This document shows, in pieces, positions 6,051-61,494 of a stretch of DNA of 61,494 bases (position 1 is its first letter; the number at the start of each line of letters is the position of its first letter). The position numbers and the translations under genes were made by a program. The stretch comes from a virus (Duplodnaviria > Caudoviricetes), in the IMG/VR virus record IMGVR_UViG_3300030099_003489, positions 1 to 61,494 of that record; one strand, written 5' to 3'. The notes under the pieces are model-generated. The model saw only the letters and a program-made list of their open reading frames with translations, was not told the DNA's origin and searched no databases.

Positions 6051-6388
6051 TAACTCACCTCCAAACTAACTGTAAATGTAATCGTATCTGCCGAAGGGAT
6101 TACTCCTGTATTTGTGAAAGTAACTCTACTCAAGAGTTTATCCCCTGATGTCTTGAATATTCCCAACTCAGAAACACCTTGACTACCTACTTGTGCGCCT
6201 GTAAACTCAGCAGTCCAAACCAATTCTGAACCTATTACAGAAGGAGTTACTACTTTACTAGCAACCACAGCATCTAATTCCGTTTGACTGGCCGCAGTAT
6301 CCCCTCCTCCGTTTCCTATTTTTACTGTAGTGTATTGTGCCGCAATATACGCCAACGCAATGTCCTCACTTCCCTCATTAACTATCAT
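6050..6388 (-). CDS. Small tail-tip/fibre-attachment structural protein
   Basis: 112 aa, beta-rich, with an ELGIF...LLSRVTF motif reminiscent of tail-collar/baseplate fibre anchors; lies between the hub and fibre genes. Confidence 0.55.
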   Translation of the reverse strand: MIVNEGSEDIALAYIAAQYTTVKIGNGGGDTAASQTELDAVVASKVVTPSVIGSELVWTAEFTGAQVGSQGVSELGIFKTSGDKLLSRVTFTNTGVIPSADTITFTVSLEVS

Positions 6389-12300: not shown

Positions 12301-13491
12301 ACTACCTAAATTTAGAATTGTATCATTAAATCTACTCTGAGTTCTAAACACTACATTAGTACAAGTCTTTCCTACTTTGTTAACTTGATTTCCAGAAAAA
12401 GGATTGATGGTTTGTCTAGCAAAATCAAGAAAAAATCTGTAGTCTGAACCACTAGTGTATTTTTGTTTTATATTTCCTAGAAGACTTCCATCTACATTGC
12501 TCCACAGTGATTGTCCTTCAACTAACTTTTCCCAATTAGTTTGTGATAATTGATAGTACTTGCTTGTGCTACCTGCTTCAAATTGTGCAAGTGTTCCAAC
12601 TATATCTGTGATACTAGTAGTGGTGTTTTCCCACCATCTCAAGTGAGTAGCGTTGTACTTGGTCATGTAATCTAATTGATTTTTCTCATCCAGTCTATCA
12701 TTATAGAAATACCAAGTAGGCAAACTACAAATATTTACTCTATCGTATTTAGGTGTAGTAGCACTAGTATCTCCTCTCAATCCATAACTAACAGCAACGA
12801 CACTTGTATCTGTTTTTGCTGGACCCTTGTATATCTCAAATTTGGTGTTCTTTGGTATGGCTGTAGGATATGATGGGCTAAATTCCAATCCATCTCCAAA
12901 TGTATCAAATGTGGTTATTCTAGTTATTTTAGCAAAGTGTGGTCTAACTTTATCATTACCTGCTTCAACTATCTGTGGATTAATTAGAATAAAATAATCA
13001 TAGTTTTCAACGTCTAGTCCTATCTCATCACTGTTAGGATAATTGCTAGTTGAATATATTAATCTTCTATTTGTCTCACTATTTGTTGTTGATATCTCTG
13101 AATCCATGACTTTTATTTTAAAGGCAGGAGTTTCTTCATTACAATTCGCATAACTTGCTAGGTTTTCGTTAGTAGGTAGAATTCTATTTCCTATCCTATC
13201 TGTTCCATCATTTGATATTGAGATAGCCCTAGAAGTATTTCTGATTTCCATAAAGTTAGCAGAATTTTTTAGAACGTCATGTCCTGTTTGATTATGTTGT
13301 ATGTTATTTTCATACTTTAGATTATTTTGAACAAAAGTAGGATTGACAGAGACACTAGTGTACGCTTTACTTTCATGAGCCGTGTGACTATCATAATCAT
13401 ATGTGCTTCCATCTACTATGATATCTTCATGTATACCTGAATTTAAAGGAAAAATTACTCGTCCAAAGTTTTCTTGCGTACCCATGTTCAA
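6385..13491 (-). CDS. Giant tail-tip/baseplate hub-like protein (2368 aa)
   Basis: S/T/N/G-rich; C-terminal DPTIKTKTDAEIRAVELL...LEAGDIVRLNFP resembles tail hub/central fibre proteins; located downstream of the tape measure. Confidence 0.65.
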   Translation of the reverse strand: MNMGTQENFGRVIFPLNSGIHEDIIVDGSTYDYDSHTAHESKAYTSVSVNPTFVQNNLKYENNIQHNQTGHDVLKNSANFMEIRNTSRAISISNDGTDRIGNRILPTNENLASYANCNEETPAFKIKVMDSEISTTNSETNRRLIYSTSNYPNSDEIGLDVENYDYFILINPQIVEAGNDKVRPHFAKITRITTFDTFGDGLEFSPSYPTAIPKNTKFEIYKGPAKTDTSVVAVSYGLRGDTSATTPKYDRVNICSLPTWYFYNDRLDEKNQLDYMTKYNATHLRWWENTTTSITDIVGTLAQFEAGSTSKYYQLSQTNWEKLVEGQSLWSNVDGSLLGNIKQKYTSGSDYRFFLDFARQTINPFSGNQVNKVGKTCTNVVFRTQSRFNDTILNLGSDKLDAVLVDTNKTDDYEITDAHKWNTSFPRMHRHTGNLISDTSNSLDGNLTGPAKYITFEKGDFKNNKLPLMQSANVNSPRNKMSQLASFSMLDSSGLAHLKVKEEDRLLVQRNIYNSNMKYYPVEGKASSVTGTADNIEMKEISKEFDLRHKLSTDDIIEVDGYLYVVHTVFAQSGGTQKIKVKDSKLKSATTWSGSSNVHSISQKTLFVPPYTGVLNYDLVSDTEIDYTTDRITIDGVTIDKNNAKLNDARLVFVTNTSHNNLLDITDKNNKFAKIQDTTRTFYQRSNESKDRFYYYSGGYAISDTAFDGIIENANSKTEMGMTTYSINGRDETSKLISQTINKNTAVLSDIHHSSHDPIVNNVTELSVGTISVNGSVLTYGGTTSGITLKPFGILLNHDGKYVGEIKSFTTSPKEITLFRPPQVTFNNSGVNLKYYHPYTYLSTDTTHTTYITGTKALGSNPNITDGIADLSVSGRGLVFDGGVRLISPDSANAYYTNSTFTTDKLVGTSNTGGVLKDKTLGYDITSPKNIDANDSNFAIKIGNENGVSVTHNSVGTVKQETFDVVTINEKIEGGTTISVAPTFPVVMGRVASNSSDTRGNCSLYFVNANLNTGGFVHKLGVGNSYNDHIDGNCIRYWDFQKINPGTINRKYDSIYNFGVSPQKIQGYAVGYGVRADGSTISVTSSNTNRPINGSNTLDGWNYLGNFYGPYDSSTTPDTPNLIKSYYPNALNTGDPFEYDIDYEAFEQIDSRTDYYDWFGIGDLLPASNNRNNNLGYHTLNYEDFSMLLESDEDEVGDTVIHEEYVGTTRQTAKSENNFESVSISSATQTTNQISRFGVIRLVEATFDWHFNPVDLENTLASESIPTIPYFDYVMFENPDQLTGKTIQLRETDGANVNVSSTNITTQTLGDMFYTTDYMGSNPFREHTTLTGSPDQINGFIAVKESGSSGSFNTDSGNNNLIDASTLSGTGHTEIYNDIWQFDGYDDGGTIKYYGVQPFYVYTNQSFLLDKISKPSSSTNHMTVNRSNRRHDFRFTDVYITRPFTHTGIFEFANLEDNGEAFSAHNIILPLIVGELSDDSTYENKEISPFHHPDNWANQNTNWLHTSRVINALVGAKFGADSGTTISHQDKYGLGYGTYPFAHPYEGCIGVFKDVKVAMTDNTIDPGTIEITSAPLALDTNANYVDYVAEATNANLDQHDRNVQVAEYDANNTVAMIGTRTESHFLSEKKAISTDTQENHHTEFASDAANEGLVVSAQMAIKPVFQLKAATSGGSNYVVGATDTSLAFPNGTNTSIGDTMVFTLNNSSKHTFLSFLPNLTGYYLVSESKANGGDLRNSTRIDAPRAITRITSHTVSTAPTISNHETHTIKIDVPLRPIFSSTHKFRLMRPSEVTFNGEENSIRFNVMEPVSRFTRSSFLTGESGADTDSVSGAVHHYRESLYQMFLLLDVDGVPQTENTLTNDGYTTQSGHMNYDNSTIDVREPTQAAHKFKRTGTTLVQKTMNVTDGLNSSVKNITFTDFFPLDRDSSTAFDTSINFTKIPGLGMKFDGQLFGNGVVSFGEVFDIALSRRPKLKNIKKCHIGTGFTVASNVNDEIENLVKGVGLEYDDLRSFITPTGNIVSSATSNTVVCSATPEDISAGDVLYTHDGHLVGEIQGISSQTITFTTNLKFTPIQHDELIKINKKTYVSALKFDDVNLFTAINALAVKNGLDYNIRNGKFSARNIEDTSSLRKYALSYAESDRLISVENNTSLFDTANKAVIIGDRIKYELERSTNTQTRVIQEVDPTIKTKTDAEIRAVELLKLHNKKHRKITIKVHKQGLELLEAGDIVRLNFPNHDIPNDDYIVFEITNVLTGVLTMTVGTFDKSIAERLSELNTKQSDGFSSLFQKDSMKISAGKHLSDAINIKNVRLSYVVTGSSNALSYNSNMGFDDLVGFTEEVGFEHSTVTKKSYGDKFYEQDDYGGTVE

Positions 13492-31735: not shown

Positions 31736-34303
31736 TTATTCTGGAAATGGTAAAATAGCAAATCTATCTTTAGTAATGTCTCTCAATTCCTCATCTCCCT
31801 TATTTGTAAGCATATCCTGTTTCTTTCCTGTCCATGCTAACCAAGTTCTCTTTTCATTTACAGGTATCACTCTAAAGTGCATACGAGTCTTGAATTTATC
31901 ACCATCTAAACGATACTCATGATACCCTTCTTTCTGCATTCCAAACTTCAAGTCTCCCTCATCAATTGTAATCCCATCTCCCGTAGTCTTAGCAACTATT
32001 GCAGGATACTTACCAGACTTACCAAACAAGTCGTATATATCTGCTGATTTCTCCAACCTAATAGTCCATGCATTTGTGGAGTCGCCCAACTTGATAATGA
32101 AATCTAAATTACCATCCTCTCTTTTTTTTAGAATGAAAGTTCCCTCATCGGTTTCTTCTTTAATTATTATACCCTCATCGGTTTTGAAAGTCATATTCTT
32201 ACCATCAAAAACTAATCCGTGTTTATCTTGAGATTGTAGGAATTGTAACAATTCATTATCGTTACTCTCAAATATATCCTTAAATGGCTCTTCTAGATTT
32301 ATCTTTACCCAATCGAGTATTTCATTGAAATGCATGGGCTTATTTCCCTTTCTCCTAATGTAATCCATTACTCCAACTCTAAAATCCTCAGTAGCCTTTT
32401 CTAGCATTTCATCTAGTTGGTTCTTCCAGAGTTCAAGGTTGTATAGTGCGTTTTTCTGCATCAACTTATCGCCTTCAAATCCATATATCGTGTATCCTTC
32501 GTAATTGGACTTGAGAATTATTTCTGCCTCTCCATGTATGTTGTCTGTGATATAGAAGGACTTCTTCTCTTCCTTCCTATTTTTGAGTCCACTTCTAACC
32601 TTGAATGCCCTCCCTACATCTCTAGACAGTTCTGGTAGTTCAGTAACCAACGATAGTGATTTCTTTGTTTTCTTAGATAATTTCTCTAATGTTTCTATTT
32701 TGTCCGGTAGTTCTACTTCAGGTATCTCAATAAGTTTCGCAGAATAAAGACTGTAGCCGTCTTTTTTCTTCTTTACCTCATCTACTTTGACTCTGATGAT
32801 TGAACCTACCTGTACCGACTTCTTTGTATTGAGAGCCTTACCTACCACCAGATACTCTTCCCCATCTAGGACAACGGTATTCATTCCCTCCGCATCTTCT
32901 TCCATCAATGGTCCTATTCCCATAGTGTACGAATGCAGATTATTTCCCGTCTTACTCTTATCTAGGACTATTACATCCAAATCAACAAACTTCTTCCATT
33001 TAATCCATTTTGGATTCTTCTTGACTCCACGATAGTATGTGGATTCTATGTCCTTTATCACCACTCCCTCAGAAGCAGGTAGTTCCATTATTGCCTGTGA
33101 GTACTCTTCTACTTCATCAATAGAGTCAGCAATCCTAGTATCCTTTTTGGATGGGAAAGCCAAATCTTCTGATGAATGTTCTGCATATTGGTAGAAAAGT
33201 ATGTTGATTCTTTCTCTGAGAGTGTCCTCTATGATAGATTTGTCATCATGTTTCATTATGTCAAAAACGTGCGCTCTCAAATCACCATCGGTTCCTTTCT
33301 TGAATACGTGCTTGACTGTATCTGCTCTATGAAGAGGCTCACCATCCTTGAACAATAGTAGTTCTGCATCCAATATGCAATTTTGGAATGCCTTGTTCTT
33401 CATCGCCTCGACTTGCTTTGGGCATTTATCTGTGATGTCTTTCTCATTGAAGGAATATATCTTTATCTTGTCCTTTATCTTGTGAATCTGTATTCTCATA
33501 CCATCATACTTCTCTTGTACGATGAACTCTCCACTTAACCCCTTCAATGATTTCATGTCGTCAATCTCAAATATTCTGTACATCGGCTTATTGGGTATTA
33601 GGAAACCTAATTTCTCATCCTCTGATTTTTCTGCCTTAGCAACGTCCAACTGCACTAGATTCTTCCAGTCCTCTCCACCGTATTTCTCATTGAATAGTTC
33701 CTTCAAGTCCCTATACAGAGTCTTGAACTTGGATTTCAATCTCTTAGTGTCTTTGTCATCCCCATAGTGTTCTGAGATGTATAGTGGAATGTCCTTTGGT
33801 TCTAAGTCCAAACCCGGAACTCCCATCGTTATTTCATCGGGTTTGAAACCATGCTTATCCAATAGTTTGTCCGGTAGTGTGTTTGAATGAGAGCGTAGTG
33901 CATAGTGAATGAAGGAAATAAACAAGGAATCATTTTCAAGTAGTGCATCAACTACCTTGTCGTTTCCTATCTGCTTACCAAATGGGTCACTAACCTCATC
34001 TGATTTGAAACGCATCTCTTTGATTGCCTTGTATAATTTCTCAGCCTGTACACTTTCTGGATTCATGGCTTCCTTTTCAAAAGGCAGTTTTTCGTCTATG
34101 TACTTCTTTAGTTCTCTTGCGAAATCATTCAGAGAATCAAATTGCTTCTGTATTGACTTTACCGTTTCTCTCCACTTACTGCCATACTCAGCAGGGTCTT
34201 CCTTTGCGGAAAGATATGAGAATCTAACTTTCTCAAAAAACGTTAGTATACGCTTGGTTAGATGCTTGTCTTTCTTGTCAAACATTAAACCGGAACGTGG
34301 CAT
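31736..34303 (-). CDS. lig: ATP-dependent DNA ligase with N- and C-terminal extensions
   Basis: Motif I QEKYDGMRIQIH, motif III ILDAEL, IIIa VFDIM, IV EGVVIKD, V WIKWKK, then an OB fold. Confidence 0.9.
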   Translation of the reverse strand: MPRSGLMFDKKDKHLTKRILTFFEKVRFSYLSAKEDPAEYGSKWRETVKSIQKQFDSLNDFARELKKYIDEKLPFEKEAMNPESVQAEKLYKAIKEMRFKSDEVSDPFGKQIGNDKVVDALLENDSLFISFIHYALRSHSNTLPDKLLDKHGFKPDEITMGVPGLDLEPKDIPLYISEHYGDDKDTKRLKSKFKTLYRDLKELFNEKYGGEDWKNLVQLDVAKAEKSEDEKLGFLIPNKPMYRIFEIDDMKSLKGLSGEFIVQEKYDGMRIQIHKIKDKIKIYSFNEKDITDKCPKQVEAMKNKAFQNCILDAELLLFKDGEPLHRADTVKHVFKKGTDGDLRAHVFDIMKHDDKSIIEDTLRERINILFYQYAEHSSEDLAFPSKKDTRIADSIDEVEEYSQAIMELPASEGVVIKDIESTYYRGVKKNPKWIKWKKFVDLDVIVLDKSKTGNNLHSYTMGIGPLMEEDAEGMNTVVLDGEEYLVVGKALNTKKSVQVGSIIRVKVDEVKKKKDGYSLYSAKLIEIPEVELPDKIETLEKLSKKTKKSLSLVTELPELSRDVGRAFKVRSGLKNRKEEKKSFYITDNIHGEAEIILKSNYEGYTIYGFEGDKLMQKNALYNLELWKNQLDEMLEKATEDFRVGVMDYIRRKGNKPMHFNEILDWVKINLEEPFKDIFESNDNELLQFLQSQDKHGLVFDGKNMTFKTDEGIIIKEETDEGTFILKKREDGNLDFIIKLGDSTNAWTIRLEKSADIYDLFGKSGKYPAIVAKTTGDGITIDEGDLKFGMQKEGYHEYRLDGDKFKTRMHFRVIPVNEKRTWLAWTGKKQDMLTNKGDEELRDITKDRFAILPFPE

Positions 34304-51641: not shown

Positions 51642-51736
51642 TTTTCATCACTCCAATTCCGATAACAGTAGGGGCAACCTGTTGGCGCACCTACGTTATT
51701 ATTATCTAAACTTATTCCAGCACCACAACAACTCAT
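51638..51736 (-). CDS. Cys-rich micro-peptide, 32 aa (not in ORF track)
   Basis: MSCCGAGISLDNNNVGAPTGCPYCYRNWSDEK; ATGA overlaps at both ends fill the gap exactly. Confidence 0.55.
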   Translation of the reverse strand: MSCCGAGISLDNNNVGAPTGCPYCYRNWSDEK

Positions 51737-52905
51737 CTTACCAACACCGTTCTCCAATCCATCTTAGTAGTTGTATCTGGTGCTTCCTCAACCATTCCTT
51801 GTGTCTGTGCCGTAACCTCTTGCTCTTCGTTCCTCTGGAAACCTGCCATATTAGCAATCTGATTGATTTGGTTCTTGGGTATTGCTAGGTACACGGACCT
51901 TACACCTACTGGATAATCTGCATTGACTGATTCCATTATTCTCAACATCAATTGGCTATCTCCCTCATCCTGTAGGTCTACTTTGTTCTTCAAGAAGAAA
52001 TTCCTAGCCTTAGTCGCTGAGAAGTTACCTGCCGAAGTTCGATAACTACTATCCTGTACTGCTCTTGTGAACCAATCTCTAACAGGTTCTAACTCATTGA
52101 ATATTGCCTGTGCCGCACCTAGACCCTCAATGGCTATTGGTGTAGATTCAAGAACATCCATGACTCCTTCAACTTCAAGTGCATCAGTAACGATAGTCAA
52201 TAGAGAATCTCCAACACCCTCAAACAACTTGTCTCCATCACCATACAATGCTTGCCACATAGGGGGTTCTGCCGTATCTGGTTGGTCGCTGTACCAATCA
52301 GAATTCACAGCATCCATCTCAGCCTCTTTTCTCTTTATCTCTCTCCTATAGTCAACATAGGTCTGAGTTCTGTAATGCCCATAGATTACACCCTTTCTGG
52401 TTCTGTGTCTGGGATTCCCGTCTTTGTCAACTAGAACCTCGCCATCTTTTTCCATAGGACTTGGATTCCAACCTTTGATGTCACTTTGCCAACTCATGTT
52501 TCTGGGGTTCATCTTACTACCATCTGCACCCTCATTATCCATCACGTTCTTTACTGACTGTAAGAGTTCCTTAGTCTGTGGTCCCATGTCTCCCCCGAAA
52601 ATGGTTTCACAAGCAGGTAGCAGATACGAGCCGCCCTGCCCCGACTTCTTCTGCTCTGCTTCTCTTGCTTCTCCCCCCTTACCATATACGATTCTCTTAC
52701 TGTTGCCATGTTTCAGAAGACTGTCCCAAAGACTAGTTTCCTCTCTCATTACACCTATGTCCTCACCAGACAATTCCTCACAACGGTCCTTCCAATTGTC
52801 ATACCTCTCCTTGACATTACTGTAGTCAAAGTTAACTTCAACATTGTATGGACCAACACGATAGGTATTGTCTTTCTTAACCATGATTAATTCCCAAGCC
52901 CCCAC
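51733..52905 (-). CDS. Hypothetical protein (390 aa; C-terminal MDWRTVLVR)
   Basis: Long ORF in operon. Confidence 0.7.
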   Translation of the reverse strand: MGAWELIMVKKDNTYRVGPYNVEVNFDYSNVKERYDNWKDRCEELSGEDIGVMREETSLWDSLLKHGNSKRIVYGKGGEAREAEQKKSGQGGSYLLPACETIFGGDMGPQTKELLQSVKNVMDNEGADGSKMNPRNMSWQSDIKGWNPSPMEKDGEVLVDKDGNPRHRTRKGVIYGHYRTQTYVDYRREIKRKEAEMDAVNSDWYSDQPDTAEPPMWQALYGDGDKLFEGVGDSLLTIVTDALEVEGVMDVLESTPIAIEGLGAAQAIFNELEPVRDWFTRAVQDSSYRTSAGNFSATKARNFFLKNKVDLQDEGDSQLMLRIMESVNADYPVGVRSVYLAIPKNQINQIANMAGFQRNEEQEVTAQTQGMVEEAPDTTTKMDWRTVLVR

Positions 52906-53624
52906 TCTATCTCAATTTCATGTGTCCAATCCTTTGGTTCTGTAGAATTATGGCAGTCAATTATGAATTCATCCACTTCATTGACATTAATCCTATAATT
53001 ACCTGAGTTTACGCTATTTTTTATTTTCAGCGCATCAGGTTTTGTGGCTTCTGTAGTGTCAACTCTCAATCTTATGTCCAAAGGAGAATAATCCCTGTCT
53101 GTCATTCTGTAAGACTTTGGGCCACCTTGCTCATAGCCTTGACCCGGATTATATTTTTCACCAAAATTATTATGCTCATAATCTATGTTAAAATCATAAG
53201 TCATACTTGTGATAGTCGTATAGACATCAATTGGGGCCGTCTGACCTTTTCCACTAGTATCTATTGTAACATTGCCTTTCAGAACAAGATTAGTGATAGT
53301 CGTATCGTCTTCTACGGAGTCAAATCTGCTAGGTTTATCTTCACCGGGTTCCTCTCTATACCTTCTACTCCATACTTCTGGAATATTTTTCATCTCAACA
53401 CTAAAGCGCGGTTTATCCATGTCAAATTCTACTGGTTTACCCTTCTTGTCTTCTAAGTCATCAAAGATGTCTCTCTTCTTCACCTTATGCTCAAACAAGT
53501 AGTCTGATGCATCATCAACGGAACTCCACTCATGCTCAGACAAATCATAATTATCAGCAACTTCCTCAAGGTCATCTATAGCCTCATCTACAGGCTCTTT
53601 CTTGAACAAATCAAACCATTTCAT
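52887..53624 (-). CDS. W-tag protein (MKWFDLFKK)
   Basis: 245-aa acidic ORF. Confidence 0.7.
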   Translation of the reverse strand: MKWFDLFKKEPVDEAIDDLEEVADNYDLSEHEWSSVDDASDYLFEHKVKKRDIFDDLEDKKGKPVEFDMDKPRFSVEMKNIPEVWSRRYREEPGEDKPSRFDSVEDDTTITNLVLKGNVTIDTSGKGQTAPIDVYTTITSMTYDFNIDYEHNNFGEKYNPGQGYEQGGPKSYRMTDRDYSPLDIRLRVDTTEATKPDALKIKNSVNSGNYRINVNEVDEFIIDCHNSTEPKDWTHEIEIEWGLGN

Positions 53625-54130
53625 CGTCTTGTCACTCTCGCTCCACTAACACTATCACCATCATCTAAATCTGGACTGGTTAATATTCTTTCTACATAAT
53701 CCATATTTAGAGGACTTGGAAAAGTCAATTCTCCTTCTCTTCCTCTAAAGTAAGGGTTATTTGGAAATTCACTCTTTCTCTGGTCATACAGTTCCATAAT
53801 ATTTCTTTGCATCGCTTTCCAATCAAAGCCCATCAACCATTCTCTGACTCCCTTTGCAATTGCACTATTGGGGATTCTCTTGTCCGTCACTAAATTGGTT
53901 ATTTTTCTCGTATAATCATCTAAATTCTCTCTGTATTCCTTAACTGATGTGTAAATTGGACCCCATTCTTCAGGTACGGATGAAAATTCCTTAGTGCGTG
54001 AATCTCTTTTTGGTGTAAACACTAATTTCTCTCCAAAATTAACCATTGAGTTAAGATAATCGCCTATATCGTTTAACACATTGAATAATTCTAAGGATGA
54101 GTCTACTTTCACTATGTCAAACCATCCCAT
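53621..54130 (-). CDS. W-tag protein (MGWFDIVK), first gene of the late operon
   Basis: 169-aa ORF. Confidence 0.7.
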   Translation of the reverse strand: MGWFDIVKVDSSLELFNVLNDIGDYLNSMVNFGEKLVFTPKRDSRTKEFSSVPEEWGPIYTSVKEYRENLDDYTRKITNLVTDKRIPNSAIAKGVREWLMGFDWKAMQRNIMELYDQRKSEFPNNPYFRGREGELTFPSPLNMDYVERILTSPDLDDGDSVSGARVTRR

Positions 54131-54214
54131 GACCCATCCAAACGAGTCTAACTAAAAGTCCTTGCGAAAAAACCGGACTCAAAAACGAAAAGAAACCGTC
54201 CAACGGTTTGTAAC

Positions 54215-54238
54215 AATTAATTTATACCTTCTTTTTCA
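54215..54238 (-). promoter_or_regulatory. Candidate archaeal BRE/TATA promoter for the late operon
   Basis: Minus strand reads GAAAAAGAAGG-TATAAATT about 90 bp upstream of the first late gene. Confidence 0.35.
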
Positions 54239-54311
54239 AAAAATGGGCTGGAATTTTTTTACCACTAGCGAAATTCTTTTTTTTGGTTTTTTTCCATTCC
54301 CAGAATAAAAT

Positions 54312-54465
54312 CCACAGGGGGTATACTAGGGGGTATCTCCACAGGGGGGTACTCTAGACACCTCTACAGGGGGTATTCCTAGCGCACCCGGCGGAAAATA
54401 GTGCTTTTTGTAGTCCCACAGGGGCAAAGTGGGGGTTATTATCCCCCTACAGGATACTCAGGGGA
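54312..54465 (+). repeat. Cluster of (CAC/TAC)AGGGGGTA-like G-tract repeats
   Basis: G4-6 runs at 54317, 54329, 54344, 54369, 54421, 54431 and 54461 in non-coding DNA. Confidence 0.75.
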
Positions 54466-54528
54466 AACAACACCTGTAGATACCCACAAGTTAATTTTCT
54501 GTGTAAAACAAATTTTTTGTCCTAACGG

Positions 54529-54538
54529 ACCATATGGT
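54529..54538. repeat. ACCATATGGT palindrome, copy 1
   Basis: Perfect 10-bp palindrome; right arm tgtga-g-ACTTTGT-g-tcaca. Confidence 0.9.
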
Positions 54539-54630
54539 GTGAGACTTTGTGTCACAGTGAGAGGAACTGGTTCATGGGGTGGGAGGAGTCTTGGGTCATC
54601 GGAGATGAGGTGTAAGACCCTCAAATCCGC

Positions 54631-54906
54631 TCAACGATAGTTATCATCTACATACTTCTCGATAACTTCGTATGCTCCCTCTGACATTCTCCTGATTTTC
54701 CTCATTGCCTCCTGTCTAGCAGGAGAATTCGGAGTCAACCAACCATTCTTCCTCAACCATTCTCCTAAAGGAATGGCATCCGACATATTGTACTCTGCGG
54801 CTACTCTATCGGCTTTCTGTTTGTAGTGGAAATATTCCTCTTCGGTATACTCATGTTCCTCTACATACTGTTCTTTCTTTCTTACTATCCATACACTTCT
54901 TGCCAT
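54631..54906 (-). CDS. Small hypothetical protein (start MARSVW)
   Basis: TATA-like TTTACATTTAGG about 25 bp upstream. Confidence 0.6.
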   Translation of the reverse strand: MARSVWIVRKKEQYVEEHEYTEEEYFHYKQKADRVAAEYNMSDAIPLGEWLRKNGWLTPNSPARQEAMRKIRRMSEGAYEVIEKYVDDNYR

Positions 54907-54982
54907 AGTATCCGTGGAGCAAACCACCTAAATGTAAAGGATAGTGGGGTCGGGGCTATCGCCCCTTCGTCACTTCGTTCCG

Positions 54983-54992
54983 ACCATATGGT
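54983..54992. repeat. ACCATATGGT palindrome, copy 2
   Basis: Hairpin arms on both sides; divergent TATA-like boxes. Confidence 0.9.
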
Positions 54993-55043
54993 TGCAGACG
55001 CTAGTACTACAACCCTATATGATTAGGTAACTGAGGTACAGGC

Positions 55044-55358
55044 ATGAGTGAAGAAATAGAATGGGAGACTGTAAAGGGCGTAGACTTGAAGGATGCTGAT
55101 GGGGGTCCATTGAGAACTAGGATAGTGTACACCCATAGTGAGGACTCCTTAGAAGAATTAGTTGGGTTCTTTGGAATAAGAGCGCAAGAGGCATTGTGGA
55201 AGTATAGAGACACGACCCTACCTGATATGGAGAGCGTGAAGATGGGACATAACAGCAAGGAAGAGGTAGAGGTAATTCAGATGGCAATGAACATCACATG
55301 GCAGATGGAGAGATTCCTAAGATTACCTAAGTATCCTAATGAGAGGTGGGAACCATGA
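55044..55358 (+). CDS. Small hypothetical protein
   Basis: 104 aa with GAGGT RBS. Confidence 0.65.
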   Translation: MSEEIEWETVKGVDLKDADGGPLRTRIVYTHSEDSLEELVGFFGIRAQEALWKYRDTTLPDMESVKMGHNSKEEVEVIQMAMNITWQMERFLRLPKYPNERWEP

Positions 55359-55528
55359 CAACATACAAGATAATACGATTCAGGTTTGAAGGGAATGACA
55401 GAGTTATCAAGAGAGGACTTACTCTTGAAGAGGCTCAAGAGCATTGCAAAGACCCGGAGACATCCGGTAGTACTTGCTCAGACTTGAAGAAGCGTGGTCA
55501 GTGGTTTGATGGCTACGCGGAAGAGTGA
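55355..55528 (+). CDS. Small viral protein (GLTLEEAQEHC.DPETS...WFDGY)
   Basis: ATGA overlap; followed by a GC-rich hairpin at 55537-55569. Confidence 0.65.
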   Translation: MTTYKIIRFRFEGNDRVIKRGLTLEEAQEHCKDPETSGSTCSDLKKRGQWFDGYAEE

Positions 55529-55597
55529 ACTCAAAGGACGGGAGGGCATGCCATAGGCTCTCTCGTCCCACATGGGGTACTTTTACTAGAGTCTAGT

Positions 55598-55607
55598 ACC
55601 ATATGGT
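55598..55607. repeat. ACCATATGGT palindrome, copy 3
   Basis: Hairpin arms 55576-55600 and 55605-55634. Confidence 0.9.
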
Positions 55608-55853
55608 TCCAGCACTTTGTAGCGATAAAGAACCTTGATATTTGGTTTGGAGATACCATGCTATGAGTTTATGCTATTTTCTGTTTTATTTAGGGGGTAG
55701 TGGCAAAATACCCATAATGTTGTAGTTTGTATTTTCATTATCTCCTATTTAGCATGGTATCTCCCTTCACTTGATTGACGGTCAAGTGGTCTGTGAGTCT
55801 GAATGTGCCCGAAAGGGTCGGAATGGAGTCATTCAGTCAGAGAAGTTCCAGTA

Positions 55854-56513
55854 TCAGTTGGAACCTCCCCTTGTTGGTGCAGGTGTGTAGGTGGTTGCCA
55901 TCACCATTACACCGTCTATTTCGGTCAGCGTTATGTCGGACCCGTTGTTCTTTGGGTCTGCGGTTACTAGGTATCCGTGTGTTGCCTTGCCACTAGCAAG
56001 TTCGGTCCAAGTTCTCTTGACTCTCCCCACGTATGAGTCAGTTTCTTTCTTAGCAAGGACTGCGATAGCCGCGTCTTCGTCCTCGTAAGTGGATAGTTGT
56101 ACTCCCTTCTTGTCGTGATTATGGGTGAGTAGGTATCGGTTGTTTGATATGAACTCTACCCAGTTATCGTATCTGCTCTGTATAGAGCGAACCGACTGGT
56201 TTACTGCGTTTGGTAGGTTGGAAACCTTACCCATTACTCTACTGCATAGTCCACCAAGAACAGATTGCGTCTTGGGAATTACAGATAGGGTGTTCTCCAA
56301 CTGGTCTACAGCAAAAGTTAGATTCATTCTCTGCGAATCGTCTGCTTTCTTGAGGTCTGCATCTACTGCCTCCCAGTATTCTTCCAACCTGTTGAGTTGT
56401 TCCTTTGCTGAACGGTGGTAAGGGTCATCTTCGTTGTACTCTCCCTTAGCCAACCATTCGTTCGTCTGGTTAATCCTGTCTTCTATTTTCGTTAATTTAC
56501 TTTCATCAATCAT
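55854..56513 (-). CDS. Hypothetical protein (start reassigned to MIDESK)
   Basis: GGAG RBS; TATA-like CTTTATATTTGGG upstream at ~56577-56590. Confidence 0.65.
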   Translation of the reverse strand: MIDESKLTKIEDRINQTNEWLAKGEYNEDDPYHRSAKEQLNRLEEYWEAVDADLKKADDSQRMNLTFAVDQLENTLSVIPKTQSVLGGLCSRVMGKVSNLPNAVNQSVRSIQSRYDNWVEFISNNRYLLTHNHDKKGVQLSTYEDEDAAIAVLAKKETDSYVGRVKRTWTELASGKATHGYLVTADPKNNGSDITLTEIDGVMVMATTYTPAPTRGGSN

Positions 56514-56640
56514 GTTATCGTTCTCCGTTGTTTGTGCCTCCAGTCCGACCCTATCGAACACCTGTAGAGCCAACAACCCAAATATAAAGCGAGGTCTGTT
56601 ATATGGCTTACAAAGTAGCCAAGAGTATGCTTCGCATACG

Positions 56641-56650
56641 ACCATATGGT
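56641..56650. repeat. ACCATATGGT palindrome, copy 4
   Basis: Right arm GGTTGTA-aa-ACGCTGTA-cg-TACAACC. Confidence 0.9.
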
Positions 56651-56804
56651 TGTAAAACGCTGTACGTACAACCCCCCGGAGGGCGGAGAGGTGGTCGTGG
56701 CATACCTTCACCTCTCCGTTTCACCTTGTCGAAGGCTACTTCCTCCTTTGCTTCACTCTAGGTTTTCTTTGTCCTCCGGTTGTGGACTACCTAGACCGTG
56801 CGAC

Positions 56805-57017
56805 TCAGATACTGGCTAGATACTTGAGATAAGCACCGTGCCACCTGTTGTGTTTGAATGCTTCGTTGGTGTTCGCTAATTCCCAACCAATCAAACCTAT
56901 CTCCACTGGTGTCAATTGTCTTCCTGTAATTTCTGTGAGTTTCACAGTGAGAACCCAGTTCAGATATTCAAACTGACATCTTGTTAACCTCGGATGGTCT
57001 TGCGGGTACTCGGTCAT
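56805..57017 (-). CDS. Small hypothetical protein (start MTEYPQ)
   Basis: GGAGGT RBS. Confidence 0.55.
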   Translation of the reverse strand: MTEYPQDHPRLTRCQFEYLNWVLTVKLTEITGRQLTPVEIGLIGWELANTNEAFKHNRWHGAYLKYLASI

Positions 57018-57018
57018 T

Positions 57019-57324
57019 CTACTGTACCTCCCTAAGATGGACATTGATTGAACAACCCTTCTCCCCGTCATTGTTGATAATAAGATAAAGCCGCATCAAG
57101 TCCCATACTTTCTTCTGACCTATCAGTTGATTCATTTGGACAAACTGAGTTTCTTTCGTCATGTTTACGTCCGTCCCATAGTTAACAAAAATGGCATCGA
57201 GTTTTTTCTGTGTCTTTTCAATATCCTCTTGTACAATCACCATCAAATCGTCATGTGCATCACGGTATCCCTCTTTGTACCCCTTTTCTTGGTAGTATTC
57301 ATATTCTTCTTTACTGACCATCAT
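57019..57324 (-). CDS. Small hypothetical protein
   Basis: 101 aa with GGAGG RBS. Confidence 0.6.
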   Translation of the reverse strand: MMVSKEEYEYYQEKGYKEGYRDAHDDLMVIVQEDIEKTQKKLDAIFVNYGTDVNMTKETQFVQMNQLIGQKKVWDLMRLYLIINNDGEKGCSINVHLREVQ

Positions 57325-57539
57325 TCTTCCTCCTTGAATCCTGCGGGTATCGTGGTTATGTCATCAAGATGAAAGAGAATACTTTCAGGGTGTCGAGAAC
57401 TTATGCTATTCTTTAACAACCACATTAGAATATTTATCTGTCCCATGCAATAAGTCATGTGAGATATTCTCTCTTCATCACGGTATTCGTCTGCTTTCGC
57501 TTCTATTTCTTCTATCTTATCTAGTAATTTTATCATCAC
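57321..57539 (-). CDS. Small hypothetical protein
   Basis: 72 aa with GGAGG RBS. Confidence 0.6.
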   Translation of the reverse strand: MMIKLLDKIEEIEAKADEYRDEERISHMTYCMGQINILMWLLKNSISSRHPESILFHLDDITTIPAGFKEEE

Positions 57540-57548
57540 TTTTCCTCC

Positions 57549-57695
57549 TTAATTCCCATTGTTTTCCTTAATGCGCTCAACTAGTGAGACAGCAAAGCAT
57601 CTTCTGCAAATGTGGTTATCATGTGGGAACGTAACTGAGAACTCTCCCTTGAGCCAGCATGCATCACATATTCGTGGTTCTGGGTCTTCTTTCAT
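57549..57695 (-). CDS. Zn-finger micro-protein, 48 aa (not in ORF track)
   Basis: MKEDPEPRICDACW...HICRRCF; TATA-like box about 25 bp upstream. Confidence 0.6.
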   Translation of the reverse strand: MKEDPEPRICDACWLKGEFSVTFPHDNHICRRCFAVSLVERIKENNGN

Positions 57696-57751
57696 GTCAA
57701 CCCCTAACAAAACCCAAACTTAACCGGGTAGTCTATACGAAAGTTCTTGCT

Positions 57752-57761
57752 ACCATATGGT
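57752..57761. repeat. ACCATATGGT palindrome, copy 5
   Basis: Hairpin arms on both sides. Confidence 0.9.
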
Positions 57762-57802
57762 TCGGCACTTTGTAGCCAAAGGAACCCCAGAGGACAGGAT
57801 TT

Positions 57803-58009
57803 TCACCTGCGCCTCTGTAGTTTCTTGTATCTGATGTGCGCCTTGCGTATCTCCTTCTGAATTCTACCCACTGAATGTCTTTTCAGGGTGGGGGTCTTAT
57901 CATTAGGGTGGTTTTCGATGTGTTCTCGTATCTTCTGATTGAGATTGGCTCTTTCAGTCTCATCTCCTATGTGAATCCTGATGTTTTTTGCTGTTCCTCG
58001 ATTCGTCAT
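57803..58009 (-). CDS. Small basic protein
   Basis: 68 aa with GGTGA RBS. Confidence 0.6.
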   Translation of the reverse strand: MTNRGTAKNIRIHIGDETERANLNQKIREHIENHPNDKTPTLKRHSVGRIQKEIRKAHIRYKKLQRRR

Positions 58010-58213
58010 CTACTCATCACCTGCAATAATAGCGTCAAGTCTCTTGAGCATGGCTTCAACAATCTGTAAAGTCTCTACAGGGTCATCACTGTGTACTTTC
58101 ATACTCTTGATTATCAAAACATGGTCAGAACCGGACTTAGAATGTCCGATGTCAATAGATGTCTTGTACGGTCGTAGTTCTTGCGTGGCTTGGGGTGTTA
58201 TCTCCATGCCCAT
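58010..58213 (-). CDS. Small hypothetical protein (start reassigned to MGMEITPQ)
   Basis: TATA-like CTCATATTTGGG just upstream. Confidence 0.55.
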   Translation of the reverse strand: MGMEITPQATQELRPYKTSIDIGHSKSGSDHVLIIKSMKVHSDDPVETLQIVEAMLKRLDAIIAGDE

Positions 58214-58261
58214 ATCCCATACAACCCAAATATGAGGGTACATTACGCTCAAAGTGCTAGT

Positions 58262-58271
58262 ACCATATGGT
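58262..58271. repeat. ACCATATGGT palindrome, copy 6
   Basis: Right arm GGTTGTTGA-ACGCTCGTA-TTAACAACC. Confidence 0.9.
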
Positions 58272-58464
58272 TGTTGAACGCTCGTATTAACAACCCTCCG
58301 AGGGTCGAGGGTCTGGGGATTAACCCAGATAAAACACTCCGGTATCCAACCCGGAAAGAGAATTTTAAAAATTGGTACATTTTGTACCAAAAAAGATCAT
58401 TGGGTGAACTAAACCCTTTCTCTTTGCTGTGTCCCTCGTTAGTTTGTGTGGGGGGTCAACCTGT

Positions 58465-58926
58465 CTACGACTTGTCTTCCTCCCCGGCTACTCTCTTAGC
58501 GCGGTTTATGAGTATGTCAAGAACTTGCTCCCCCGTTAGTTCCCTCCCGGCTTCTTTCGTGCCGTCTTTCTTGGTCTTCGTGTTTGCCTTGAGGAATCTC
58601 TTCCCCTTCGCATCTGAGTCATTGTATGCGGAAACATCGAAGCAAGCGTTCAGTAGTTCAAGCAATCCTGAGAAGTCAGTATTGATTTTCTCAGAATTGA
58701 ATGCTGGAGGCTTGTAAGAGAACAGAGGAATATCCTTCTCGTCCTTTAGGAGTTGGTTGCACACGTTCAGAACGTGCTTGGTTATTCCTTCCTCTATCTT
58801 CAAGGTGAAGTATAGATACTCTTCCTTCCCCTTTACCCCGGCTACCTTGTGTGTGGCTAGGAAAGCACTGAAGGCCGCAATTAGCCCCAATGCTTTCTTA
58901 TCGTTTTTTGGTTCGTATTCTGTCAT
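58465..58926 (-). CDS. Hypothetical protein (start MTEYEPK)
   Basis: GGAG RBS; TATA-like CTTACATTTAGG upstream. Confidence 0.65.
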   Translation of the reverse strand: MTEYEPKNDKKALGLIAAFSAFLATHKVAGVKGKEEYLYFTLKIEEGITKHVLNVCNQLLKDEKDIPLFSYKPPAFNSEKINTDFSGLLELLNACFDVSAYNDSDAKGKRFLKANTKTKKDGTKEAGRELTGEQVLDILINRAKRVAGEEDKS

Positions 58927-59020
58927 TGTTATCGCTCCTGTCGCTGTGGTTTTACCCCCCACAACAAATATTACCCTAAGTGCCTAAATGTAAGGTCACT
59001 GTGTACTAGAGTTTTGAGTG

Positions 59021-59030
59021 ACCATATGGT
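59021..59030. repeat. ACCATATGGT palindrome, copy 7
   Basis: Left arm (minus strand) GGTCACT-caaa-ACTCTAGTA-cac-AGTGACC. Confidence 0.9.
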
Positions 59031-59234
59031 ACGATACTTCGGAGTATGAGAATTCTAATCGGGAAGGCCGTTTGAAATCGCCGGACTCCCTTTAAGTTTG
59101 GGCGGCGGGTTCTCAGGCTGTAGAAAAGTCACTTCAAACGTGTTTATTTTCTAGCCATAGTTTAAACATCAACACACAAAAGTCACAATTAGTTGTTTAC
59201 TCAAATGGCAACCTTTACTAATGAGCCTAGTCGT

Positions 59235-59645
59235 TCATCTCATATTAATATAATATTAGTATAGAATTGAATATCAGTATCAGTATTCGATAATCAATAT
59301 CATTAGCCAGTCAAAGAGTGAGTCAATATGACTCACTTTCTCAATATTCTCATCGAAGTGAGAAAATAGGAGGTGGGCGTAGACGGACAGAAGGGACGAA
59401 TTAAAGAAGAAAAATGATATAAAATATCATATATTCTCATATTCTCATATTCTCTCTTCTTCTACTACCCCTCTCTTCTTCTTCTTCTTCTTCTTCCCCT
59501 GAGAGGGGTGAGAAAATGAGAAAATGAGAAAACCAACAAATCTGAGAACTGAAAATGTGGAGCAGTATTTTGTTTCCCAAAGTGTTCTCAGTATTCTCAC
59601 TGGGTGAGAAAACCACCCAAATGAGAATATTAACTATAATTCTCG
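59235..59645. repeat. Origin-like region: AT-rich tract plus inverted arrays of ATTCTCA/TGAGAA repeats around a (CTT)n tract
   Basis: ATTCTCAT tandem copies at 59433-59454, (CTT)n at ~59475-59496, TGAGAAAA x3 at ~59509-59532, further copies to 59645; 9-bp inverted repeat at 59317-59337. Confidence 0.55.
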
Positions 59646-60713
59646 CTAGGACATCGAAGACAGAAGTAGCGGTACTTCGTAGATGACCTATCGTTCAATG
59701 AGGTTTTAGACCTGAATAAAAATGTGAAAAGATACCGGAGTTGTTGCAGGTAGTTTAGTGACTACCGAAGAGAGAACTTGCTTGATTCTGAATGGTTAAG
59801 CAACTGTGCGCTATAAAATGGATTCAATCCCATCAGTAGTCGTTCTCTACACATGAAAGAGTAACAAAGTCACGGACCCTTCTCTTCGGAGCGGGCTGTA
59901 AGTAGTGTTTCTTCCTACCAGAAGATATTGCGAAAGCATATGTCTACTATGGTTACTGTTTGCAAACTGTATAGTCGGAAGCAGTTCATTCCCTCCAGTG
60001 GTCAGGGGCATAGCACCCAAGCATTCCTCATGAAATATTTATCTAACATTCATCCCTTCGGGGATAATGGAGGTATGCTAGGTAACAAGTTCTGCTTGTT
60101 TCAAAAACGGATAATTCTTCGTTGTTTCTGTATTGCTACGCATTGACTACCTACTAGCATTTGGGGTTCGTTACCCATCCGTTGCCTCCACTCACACTCT
60201 ACCCCTAGAGTCGGGTTTGTCAAATAAAAAAACTGGAAAGTGTACATCATCAATCATATTACCGTAGACAAAGGGAGTTTCGTTTTCTTCCTCCAGTTCC
60301 CGATTTCTAAGGATATCACAGATGCTTTGCATCGCCACTTAATATAGTCTCGATTACATTATACTCATAAGTCGGTTTGAATCCGACAGAGTAGGAGTTT
60401 TACAACGAATAAAAAAAGACAAATTCTTCATACACTAGTTGTTGAGGGGTTCTGGGTTACCTCAAGTCTTTTCTCTTACTAATCACACTCAAAGTCGGTT
60501 TATCACAAGTCTTTGACATATTTTCCGACCGACTAATCAAATTGAGCAAGGTTGTATCAACTATGATGGTAACATCGTAGTAAAAAGACGAACTGCGTTG
60601 AGACATTTTCTTAGCAATCAAACTCCGCAGGAAAGACACTGGCCTGTTTTTCGATACAAGGTACTACCTGTCTTCCTTGCTAATCACACTCCTATTACGG
60701 AGGTAATAAAAAT

Positions 60714-61494
60714 ATGAATGGAACACAAGAACAGAAAGAAATATGGAAAGAAATGGAAAATGGTAATGACCACATGATGGTGTATGCTGGAGCCGGAACA
60801 GGCAAAACGTATACCATTGTTGCAGGTGCGAAACTAGTTGATGGAAAGAAGGGTTTTCTTTGCTTCAACAAGTCAATCCAAACTGAACTAGATGCTAAGT
60901 TGCCTGATGATTGTGACGCAATGACGTTTCACAGTCTAGGTTACTCAGCAGTTAGAATGCACAAGAGAAACTGCCGAATGGATGGTAGGAAGACTTGGAA
61001 TATCGTCAAGGATATTCTAGGTGAGAACTACCAGTCGGTATCTCAGGTGGTCAAACTAATCAGTCAACTGAAGAGCAGTATGGCAGATTGGGAAGACAGG
61101 GATATGATTGAGTATATCCTTGAGAGATTTGACATAGAGTTTGATAGTGTCATTGACAAGAATGAGGCGATTGCCCTACTACCAATACTCAAGGAGTCAT
61201 GCAAGGATGCAACCACAGTTGATTTTGATGATATGGTTTGGCTACCAGTCGAATTGAATCTACCAGTGAAGCACTACGATGTTGTCTTTGTTGATGAGGC
61301 TCAGGATTTCAATGAGGTTCAGCGAAGATTAATTCTCAAGGCTTGTAATGGTGGTAGAATGATTGTAGTCGGTGACCCGAAGCAAGCAATCTATGGTTTC
61401 CGTGGAGCAGATTCTGCTAGTATGGATTTGTTCAAGAGGGAACTTGAGAACAGTAGCAGGAGTGTATCTAACTATACTCTATCCATTACATGGA
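60714..61494 (+). CDS. UvrD/Rep-like SF1 helicase, partial (not in ORF track; runs off right edge)
   Basis: MNGTQEQ Q-motif, AGAGTGKT Walker A, TFHSLG, VFVDEAQD Walker B, VVGDPKQAIYGFRGAD; GGAGGT RBS. Confidence 0.92.
   Translation, partial: MNGTQEQKEIWKEMENGNDHMMVYAGAGTGKTYTIVAGAKLVDGKKGFLCFNKSIQTELDAKLPDDCDAMTFHSLGYSAVRMHKRNCRMDGRKTWNIVKDILGENYQSVSQVVKLISQLKSSMADWEDRDMIEYILERFDIEFDSVIDKNEAIALLPILKESCKDATTVDFDDMVWLPVELNLPVKHYDVVFVDEAQDFNEVQRRLILKACNGGRMIVVGDPKQAIYGFRGADSASMDLFKRELENSSRSVSNYTLSITW

Follow-up and report, generated by a model that had tools for sequence, protein, structure and literature searches.

We analysed a 61494-base stretch of viral DNA, the entire IMG/VR record IMGVR_UViG_3300030099_003489 (estimated to be 66 % complete and referred to below as the window), in which a group of small genes is punctuated by seven copies of a perfect 10-bp palindrome, ACCATATGGT. 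Taking this region together with its counterparts in related viruses, we consider that the ACCATATGGT arrays are probably promoter/operator cassettes of a hypervariable accessory-gene cluster, similar to the promoter-early stem-loops (PeSLs) of T4-type phages, and not an integron. The repeats are real and lie far beyond chance: exact copies begin at 54529, 54983, 55598, 56641, 57752, 58262 and 59021 but at no other position of the window, for which 0.04 copies would be expected, and none of 100 dinucleotide shuffles reached seven (the maximum was one). When one mismatch was allowed, the scan of the window added a single, unrelated site at 927. All seven copies are intergenic once two gene starts are moved, so that gene 55854–56510 begins at ATG 56510 instead of a GTG at 56711, and gene 58010–58213 at ATG 58213 instead of a TTG at 58390; the end of an RNA contig at 56559 agrees with the shorter form of the first of these genes. 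The six intervals between palindromes hold, in order, 1, 2, 1, 4, 2 and 1 small genes, and only the interval 54993–55597 has its genes on the + strand. A TATA-like box adjoins the second palindrome on both sides, the third on its + side and each of the remaining four; these gene and box counts come from a manual reading of the open reading frames (ORFs), without a gene caller. An earlier note, made from the letters of the window alone, had listed the same seven positions and no others, with every copy intergenic after reassignment of starts, one to four small genes per interval, TATA-like boxes beside the palindromes and one module in opposite orientation, all of which is borne out by the exact scan, the shuffles and our own reading of the genes.

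The palindrome is not peculiar to this virus. With the SF1 helicase of the window, 80 related IMG/VR loci were found (43–91 % identical in the helicase, on contigs of up to ~100 kb), and 63 of the 80 contain exact ACCATATGGT, giving 374 copies in 1.40 Mb. In 16 of the 17 loci without it, the sequence available upstream of the helicase gene is shorter than 2.2 kb, and the 17th, L048, has a variant that is described below. In all five complete relatives every copy (6, 5, 7, 8 and 11, respectively) falls within one cluster of 2.4–4.9 kb upstream of the SF1 helicase gene, whilst the reversed motif, used as a control, was found 0 times in the same five genomes. A genome-wide occurrence of the motif upstream of ordinary promoters, which the earlier note had named as speaking against a cassette array, is thus not seen in these five genomes. 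Within the array zones, the 374 exact copies compare with 88 copies carrying one mismatch. A composite site, in which the palindrome is flanked by short arms (CAAAG-N4-10-palindrome-N4-10-CTTTG), occurs in at least 120 IMG/VR stretches. The same composite, as opposed to the bare 10-mer, was sought in 596 Gb of prokaryote genomes, where it was found in 29 stretches against ~27 expected by chance (assuming equal base use); apart from one contig these hits were single sites in unrelated bacteria, and none was in Poseidoniales. The exception, a 14.7 kb contig (L234) in a metagenome-assembled genome labelled Altibacter, carries four composite sites within 2 kb and is probably a magrovirus contig mis-binned into a bacterial assembly.

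In gene content the window resembles the magroviruses, a group that infects marine group II archaea and is abundant but uncultured. On its − strand are genes for a large terminase subunit, portal, prohead protease, major capsid protein and a ligase-like protein, whilst the + strand carries the SF1 helicase gene from 60714 onward. The five complete relatives measure 92–101 kb, and one of them (G001, 99 kb) encodes a TFIIB/TFB-like protein, an RFC-like clamp loader, an ATP-dependent ligase and a split family-B DNA polymerase, as well as ERCC4/XPF-HhH2 and Cas4-like PD-(D/E)XK nucleases. The magrovirus gene map in the profile of the International Committee on Taxonomy of Viruses (ICTV), as far as its accessible text goes, shows an SF1 helicase, TFB, RFC, split PolB and two divergent arms (PMC10768690). 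A genome of 90–100 kb with divergent arms and an archaeal-type replisome is what we found in the relatives, the window itself being without the replication arm. Judged by these genes, the window represents part of the genome of a tailed archaeal virus of the magrovirus type (order Magrovirales). The gene set of G001 matches the magrovirus gene map and therefore indicates an archaeal host, presumably a marine group II archaeon. Positions 54000–61494 had no DNA match in the GenBank phage collection, where only remote terminase and helicase matches were found, and a search for related loci with a 390-aa protein of the window (51733–52905) gave no match.

The palindromes belong to a composite element with a regular layout. 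Outward from the centre, the order is CATATGGT, 4–10 nt, CTTTG, 8–14 nt, ACC, a TATA-like box, ~22 nt and ATG, and the TATA-like box of this series occurs on sides that face a gene start. TTTG, mostly in the form CTTTG, is concentrated 3–12 nt outside the palindrome on both sides, ACC(C/T) comes 8–16 nt beyond it, and aligned examples take the form CTTTG..ACC(C/T)(C/T)ATATA..ATG. Of 371 sides with an ORF of ≥ 40 aa, 126 have its first ATG at the peak distance of 45–54 nt from the palindrome, the palindrome centre lying ~50–60 nt upstream of the gene start and farther away where hairpins are inserted. The A+T fraction climbs to 0.72–0.87 at −26 to −22 from the ATG, and a TATA-like pentamer was present on 78 of 142 distinct sides compared with 100 of 636 random ATGs. 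In archaea the TATA box lies ~25 nt upstream of the start; the layout seen here is that of a predicted archaeal promoter with leaderless or short-leader mRNA. Our first reading of the boxes, as a Bacteroidetes-type promoter (TTTG / TAnnTTTG), was dropped because the relatives encode TFB, RFC, split PolB and ERCC4, and because the distance between box and ATG fits archaeal leaderless mRNA. The more conservative of the two proposals in the earlier note, a repeated operator or promoter of a regulon, fits the fixed geometry of TATA box and ATG and probably describes the primary function of the element.

Transcripts are present over part of the array, modules 3, 5 and 6 being covered by RNA contigs that stem from two metatranscriptome runs within a single study. 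Two contig ends, at 56559 and 58965, each lie 24 nt from the centre of a TATA-like box, although contig ends are weak evidence; such contigs prove neither starts nor strands, and the uncovered parts of the region are uninformative. The palindromes (numbered p1–p7 from left to right), TATA-like boxes and modules of the window are as follows.

54529–54538: palindrome p1, left edge of the array; CTTTG arm on the + side (gtgagaCTTTG), outer (left) side without arm.
54983–54992: palindrome p2, hub of divergent promoters, with a TATA-like box on each side.
55598–55607: palindrome p3; on the + side a CTTTG arm and the box TTGATATTTGG (55635–55645, + strand), beyond which there is a long inverted repeat but no ORF other than tiny ones.
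56641–56650: palindrome p4, promoter toward the − strand, with small hairpins between palindrome and TATA box.
57752–57761: palindrome p5, promoter toward the − strand, ahead of the four-gene module.
58262–58271: palindrome p6, promoter toward the − strand.
59021–59030: palindrome p7, right edge of the array, promoter toward the − strand.
54927–54939, − strand: TATA-like box CTTTACATTTAGG of the p2(−) promoter, 23 nt ahead of ATG 54906.
55015–55027, + strand: TATA-like box CTATATGATTAGG of the p2(+) promoter, preceding ATG 55044.
56577–56589, − strand: TATA-like box CTTTATATTTGGG of the p4(−) promoter, the box facing contig end 56559.
57713–57725, − strand: TATA-like box GGTTAAGTTTGGG of the p5(−) promoter, preceding ATG 57695.
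58225–58236, − strand: TATA-like box CTCATATTTGGG of the p6(−) promoter, preceding ATGs 58213 and 58207.
58983–58995, − strand: TATA-like box CCTTACATTTAGG of the p7(−) promoter, the box facing contig end 58965.
54631–54906, − strand: module 1, one gene (91 aa, no family).
55044–55528, + strand: module 2, two genes, 55044–55358 (104 aa) and 55355–55528 (57 aa); the only + strand module.
55854–56510, − strand: module 3, one gene (218 aa) with a weak profile match (E-value 2 × 10−4) to the helical array-core family described below; covered by RNA contig.
56805–57695, − strand: module 4, four small genes, 56805–57071, 57019–57324, 57321–57539 and 57549–57695.
57803–58213, − strand: module 5, two genes, 57803–58009 and 58010–58213; covered by RNA contig.
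58465–58926, − strand: module 6, one gene (153 aa, no family); covered by RNA contig.

None of the 11 array proteins of the window reached the curated cut-off in a Pfam search, and for just two of them do related arrays contain homologues, namely the 57-aa protein of module 2 (seven relatives) and the product of the second gene of module 5, 58010–58213 (nine relatives). At the DNA level, the modules of the window have no relatives among the related loci. A terminator-like hairpin with T and A runs (58366–58395) follows the gene of module 6.

Throughout the relatives, the arms recur on both sides of a palindrome, with CTTTG on the two sides of middle palindromes in 220 of 253 and 222 of 253 cases. 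Palindromes at an array edge carry the inner arm in 51 of 62 and 56 of 62 cases and the outer arm in 23 of 62 and 22 of 62; as these edge copies mostly lack an outer arm, the arms belong to the adjacent module. Both ends of the same module resemble each other slightly more than in the permuted control (0.465 vs 0.433, standard deviation 0.004), whilst likeness between the two sides of one junction is not raised (0.419 vs 0.423 in the control). Hairpins also occur beside the core: stems anchored on GGT...ACC, with covarying arms, gain a mean of 1.57 extra base pairs compared with 0.55, and are commoner on promoter sides than on sides facing gene ends. The latter often carry tight hairpins of the CCCC-GAA-GGGG type instead, GC hairpins being found on 25 % of non-promoter sides.

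The variant in L048 bears on how the palindrome is built. This locus has six co-oriented copies of ACCATATG joined to CTTTGGCA, followed by 8–9 nt, TATATAT, ~22 nt and ATG, with a run of 7–8 T residues ahead of each. Since the L048 units are asymmetric, co-oriented and fixed to TATATAT and ATG, the unit is directional and tied to the promoter. As read from these sequences, the palindrome of the other viruses is two L048-type units placed back to back on a shared CATATG.

Across the family, the modules between palindromes have been extensively rearranged. Cutting 64 arrays at their palindromes gave 316 modules in 193 families, of which 66 occur in at least two loci, and half of these (33 of 66) have more than one kind of neighbour. 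As an example, the orders of module families in three loci are 12-13-14-0-15-61-1 (L065), 12-13-14-0-15-62-152 (L067) and 12-13-14-0-62-61-15-1 (L070), and whole modules are likewise permuted between L017 and L019 and among L023, L024 and L026. At the junctions in L065, L067 and L070, identity on the shared flank runs as far as the core, and the opposite flank diverges already at the first base beyond it. More generally, in junction pairs with one shared and one unrelated flank, compared ungapped, identity ends 0–1 nt past the palindrome in 24 of 32. The ends of matches of ≥ 80 % identity between uncut arrays lie within 20 nt of a palindrome centre in 93 of 227 cases, compared with 6.9 % of random places; this null cannot tell palindromes apart from intergenic boundaries of other kinds, at which matches tend to end as well. 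Inversions are present too: pairs of modules from the same family comprise 41 inverted and 381 co-oriented pairs, and the array-core protein family is encoded 53 times on the + and 53 times on the − strand. The earlier note had proposed looking for gain, loss or inversion at the palindrome centre in related genomes, and at the level of the family modules are indeed permuted, inverted, gained and lost, with homology often stopping at the palindrome.

In the light of these data, the element may work as follows. ACCATATGGT would be the common core of two back-to-back, family-specific upstream promoter elements, serving small, fast-evolving accessory genes located between the morphogenesis and replication arms. 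A sequence-specific protein would bind the core, either an Aca-like repressor or activator of viral origin or a conserved host factor, and would switch the whole cluster together; such a protein is proposed because the core is nearly invariant across very divergent relatives. Recombination between copies, within one genome or between co-infecting genomes, would then permute, invert, replace and exchange modules, presumably by general or short-homology pathways. Copies of the element are suggested as the sites of this exchange because the element is the only sequence common to otherwise unrelated modules and reads the same on both strands. We assign the cassette-like behaviour of the family to recombination of the PeSL type because no enzyme was found that would drive an integron or transposon machine.

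Several observations weigh against this interpretation. The 10-bp core is short for ordinary homologous recombination, and stems are lacking on most sides, with three or more extra pairs on 172 of 762 sides (40 of 762 in the permuted control). Moreover, a relative that is ~93 % identical to the window is colinear with it over 53500–59997, and its two replacements (55358–55534 and 57350–57706, the latter in module 4, where 345 other letters stand) end at gene boundaries and not at palindromes. A conserved module order with breakpoints unrelated to the palindromes had been named in the earlier note as evidence against its cassette proposal; this is the situation in the ~93 % identical relative, but not across the family. 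Elsewhere, an array gene is 92 % identical between L022:5545–5842 and L050:6494–6791, as against 70 % for the helicase genes of the two viruses. In one virus this gene stands behind a palindrome promoter of its own, and in the other it is inverted and second in an operon; it moved without palindrome flanks, homology stopping at the ORF. The family to which it belongs (MRKITQEA...) is present in 23 arrays, and a comparison of the two copies points to a recent gene-level transfer inside the virus family. Some of the 32 junction pairs may be indels and not swaps. Furthermore, the RNA data are library contigs, which are no proof of starts, strands or early timing. Finally, no binding protein was found; there was no helix-turn-helix, ribbon-helix-helix or obvious small regulator among the best 25 of 45 Pfam families in G001. 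TFB binds next to the TATA box, not 20–30 nt upstream of it.

Some of the same observations would also suit the strongest alternative, which is that the palindrome is purely an operator or promoter element without any special role in recombination, the modules varying since intergenic recombination is tolerated. The fixed geometry of TATA box and ATG is all that such an element needs, swaps do occur at gene boundaries without palindromes, and the null for match ends was drawn from random places and not from other intergenic sites. Nevertheless, identity that ends within 1 nt of the core in three-quarters of the junction pairs, modules permuted whole with both of their arms, and module families found in both orientations are what exchange at a shared element predicts, and we therefore regard a purely regulatory role as rather unlikely.

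We find less to recommend a dedicated cassette system, in which an enzyme of the virus or host, so far unrecognized, would cut and rejoin at ACCAT|ATGGT or at the ATAT core in the manner of an integron or invertase, the promoter role being secondary. Homology that stops at the core itself in clean cases, inversion of whole modules, arms that go with modules and not with junctions (together with the slight likeness of module ends) and the excess of exact over one-mismatch copies all accord with such a system, and the relatives encode ERCC4/XPF-HhH2 and Cas4-like PD-(D/E)XK nucleases and a near-universal array protein that might serve it. The search for an enzyme argues the other way. We found no match in the five complete relatives (0/5 each) to the tyrosine recombinase (PF00589), serine recombinase (PF00239), rve-type DDE (PF00665) or HUH Y1 (PF01797) profiles, of which the first was positive in 14 of 14 control genomes and the others in well-known genomes; other transposase families were not searched singly. 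The large ORFs beside the array in the window likewise showed no match to tyrosine recombinases, and the Pfam inventory of the 101 ORFs of G001 contained no recombinase among the best 25 of 45 families. The related family Aoguangviridae is described as having no identifiable integrase or transposase in the part of its ICTV profile that was available (PMC10768690). This extends beyond the window the recombinase search for which the earlier note had called, with a negative outcome for these four families.

The near-universal array protein could not be supported as an integrase. This array-core family (L072:5609–6115 on the − strand and 105 further ORFs) is present in 47 of 54 arrays with one to four paralogues per genome; its members are ~170 aa long, with RRGRES and PHG..GG motifs and an acidic C-terminal tail, and have no Pfam match. 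A weak profile hit to the HIV integrase core (E-value 0.04) had suggested an integrase, a candidate that we rejected because the AlphaFold model (pLDDT 90.9) is all helical, Foldseek returned no match in the PDB at E-value ≤ 0.001 and rve-type DDE was absent from all five relatives. Additionally, each module has its own promoter, L048 makes do with an asymmetric, co-oriented variant that is tied to TATA box and ATG, and some genes were swapped away from palindromes. Taken together, these results argue against the integron-like or mini-transposon-like mechanism advanced in the earlier note, and we hold a dedicated cassette system to be improbable. A specific form of it, in which archaeal viruses exchange cassettes in either orientation by crossing over at the palindrome and a so far unrecognized enzyme cuts its ATAT centre, strikes us as similarly doubtful; candidates would be the array protein, or the XPF- or Cas4-type nucleases acting on extruded hairpins. 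If it were true, these viruses would trade and flip ready-to-express accessory genes, possibly including anti-defence genes, by a viral counterpart of the integron that has promoters within its recombination sites.

Least of all do we favour a structural DNA or RNA element (cruciform or hairpin terminators or insulators, or part of an origin near the helicase gene), for which the enriched GGT...ACC stems, the tight hairpins on non-promoter sides and the position of the array between two divergent genome arms could be cited, but which is highly improbable given that stems of three or more extra pairs occupy a minority of sides and are commoner upstream of starts than facing gene ends, that the copies are spread over 2.4–4.9 kb and interleaved with genes, that the terminators of L048 are T-runs well upstream of the element, and that more origin-like repeat clusters flank the array.

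Understood as PeSL-like promoter cassettes, the arrays have several practical consequences. To our knowledge, nothing is known of gene regulation in magroviruses, and the element, near-invariant and simple to search for, tags one cluster of 5–11 promoters per genome, providing a handle for listing accessory genes that are candidates for host takeover or anti-defence. The composite site is a defined DNA probe with which a binding factor could be fished out. Furthermore, the arrays offer a natural system for modular exchange driven by promoter repeats in archaeal viruses, including inversions enabled by the symmetric junction.

A number of other features were observed in and around the array. 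Close behind the p3 promoter of the + side, ~85 nt are enclosed by an inverted repeat of 15 nt (GGAGATACCATGCTA at 55649–55664 and TAGCATGGTATCTCC at 55750–55764), after which there is no ORF of > 20 aa; the repeat may form a two-way terminator for convergent units or a small structured RNA. Iteron-like repeats of TCCACAGGGGGTAT lie between p1 and position 54130, where the − strand morphogenesis arm starts; they occur at 54311–54424 in three to four copies at 25–27 nt spacing, with inverted partners up to 54491, and this region may be a control region or an origin. On the other side, the last palindrome is separated from the helicase gene by an ORF-poor spacer of 1.7 kb, which contains an A+T-rich block (59338–59634) where TGAGAAAA and ATGAGAATA words recur in either orientation, together with a (TCT)n run at 59455–59500. 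About 120 nt of it (59416–59532) is weakly conserved in four relatives, and the block is a candidate replication origin. The same spacer is the source of a very deep metatranscriptome contig (depth 187, compared with 5–24 for the contigs over modules) at 59749–59903 that continues to ~60000, which may represent an abundant non-coding RNA. A search of 53500–61494 against Rfam gave no credible match (the best was symR, with 28 bits against a cut-off of 61), and a tRNA scan found no tRNA.

In the morphogenesis arm, an 855-aa protein with an ATP-dependent ligase-like domain is encoded at 31736–34303 (− strand), between the portal and protease genes, and two ORFs in G001 match this domain. The arm ends with two giant − strand ORFs, 3–6050 (> 2016 aa) and 6385–13491 (2368 aa), which have no sequence match in Pfam or the PDB; a counterpart in G001 is 2432 aa long (L089:11928–19226). 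We had considered these ORFs as a virion RNA polymerase of the N4-like or crAss-like kind, working with hairpin promoters, and discarded the idea for lack of any Pfam or PDB sequence match. All five complete relatives also encode a TFB/TFIIB-like protein with a Zn ribbon and cyclin repeat (L088:7156–8145 in G001, and L090–L094), and a TFB-like gene appears on the ICTV magrovirus gene map in its accessible part (PMC10768690). This viral protein could define a second, virus-specific class of promoters.

When set beside known systems, the arrays are like integrons in having units of small accessory genes, a recurrent symmetric site capable of forming hairpins, and a content that varies between relatives. 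Integron cassettes are mostly promoterless and co-oriented, are expressed from a common Pc and carry one attC each. Here, in contrast, there is no IntI or other tyrosine recombinase, either beside the array or in the five complete relatives, and the units have their own promoters, two arms and either orientation; the site is a perfect sequence palindrome, whereas attC is an imperfect repeat defined by structure. No transposase of the two families searched (PF00665 and PF01797) was found that could make the units transposons or miniature inverted-repeat transposable elements. The literal motif, when sought in the literature, gave among the matches listed only unrelated papers, apparently with primer or cloning sequence, and the main texts of the magrovirus papers searched, as well as of the ICTV profile, mention no palindrome, promoter motif or cassettes.

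Closer parallels exist in archaeal viruses. In crenarchaeal viruses, consensus regulatory sequences precede early and anti-defence genes and are controlled by Aca8 or leucine-zipper repressors, according to the sections available to us (PMC11065993), which do not mention magroviruses. As described there, small, poorly conserved and mostly single genes each have a near-identical regulatory sequence around the B recognition element (BRE) and TATA box, much as here, and inverted repeats in some of these viruses are taken as repressor sites. The hosts differ, being crenarchaeal, and in our arrays the conserved part lies upstream of the BRE/TATA region and neither an Aca homologue nor a known Acr was established. 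In the haloarchaeal myovirus HGTV-1, a conserved motif of TATA box and inverted repeat stands before ORFs and was likened to PeSLs, with a proposed role in regulation and shuffling (PMC3950731, in its available text). This, too, is a tailed archaeal virus with a motif combining TATA box and inverted repeat, although, compared by description only, it concerns another host group and one genome, as opposed to the dozens of relatives here.

The PeSLs themselves are motifs of promoter and stem-loop in the hyperplastic regions of T4-type phages, where recombination shuffles ORFans and forms mini-circles, as set out in the portions of the two reports at hand (PMC2839356; PMC4122927). By that account the likeness is threefold. 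First, a composite intergenic motif with a promoter is repeated, the promoter being represented here by the predicted palindrome-CTTTG-ACC-TATA-ATG geometry; as for the stem-loop of PeSLs, anchored stems are enriched in our arrays but absent from most sides. Secondly, it is concentrated in a hyperplastic region of small genes without known function, as reflected in the large number of module families. Thirdly, it is at the motifs that replaced, inserted or deleted segments end when relatives are compared, as do many match ends and most of the junction pairs here, with the counter-examples given above. The differences are that the promoter is of the archaeal TATA type in place of sigma-70, that a single cluster replaces the ~50 motifs reported over several regions of T4-type phages, that modules are also inverted, and that an order-level group of viruses has retained a perfect 10-bp palindrome as its common core. 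What is particular to the system described here is that this palindrome has been kept despite helicases that are only 43–65 % identical, in one cluster per genome, with an arm at each module end and with modules in either orientation.

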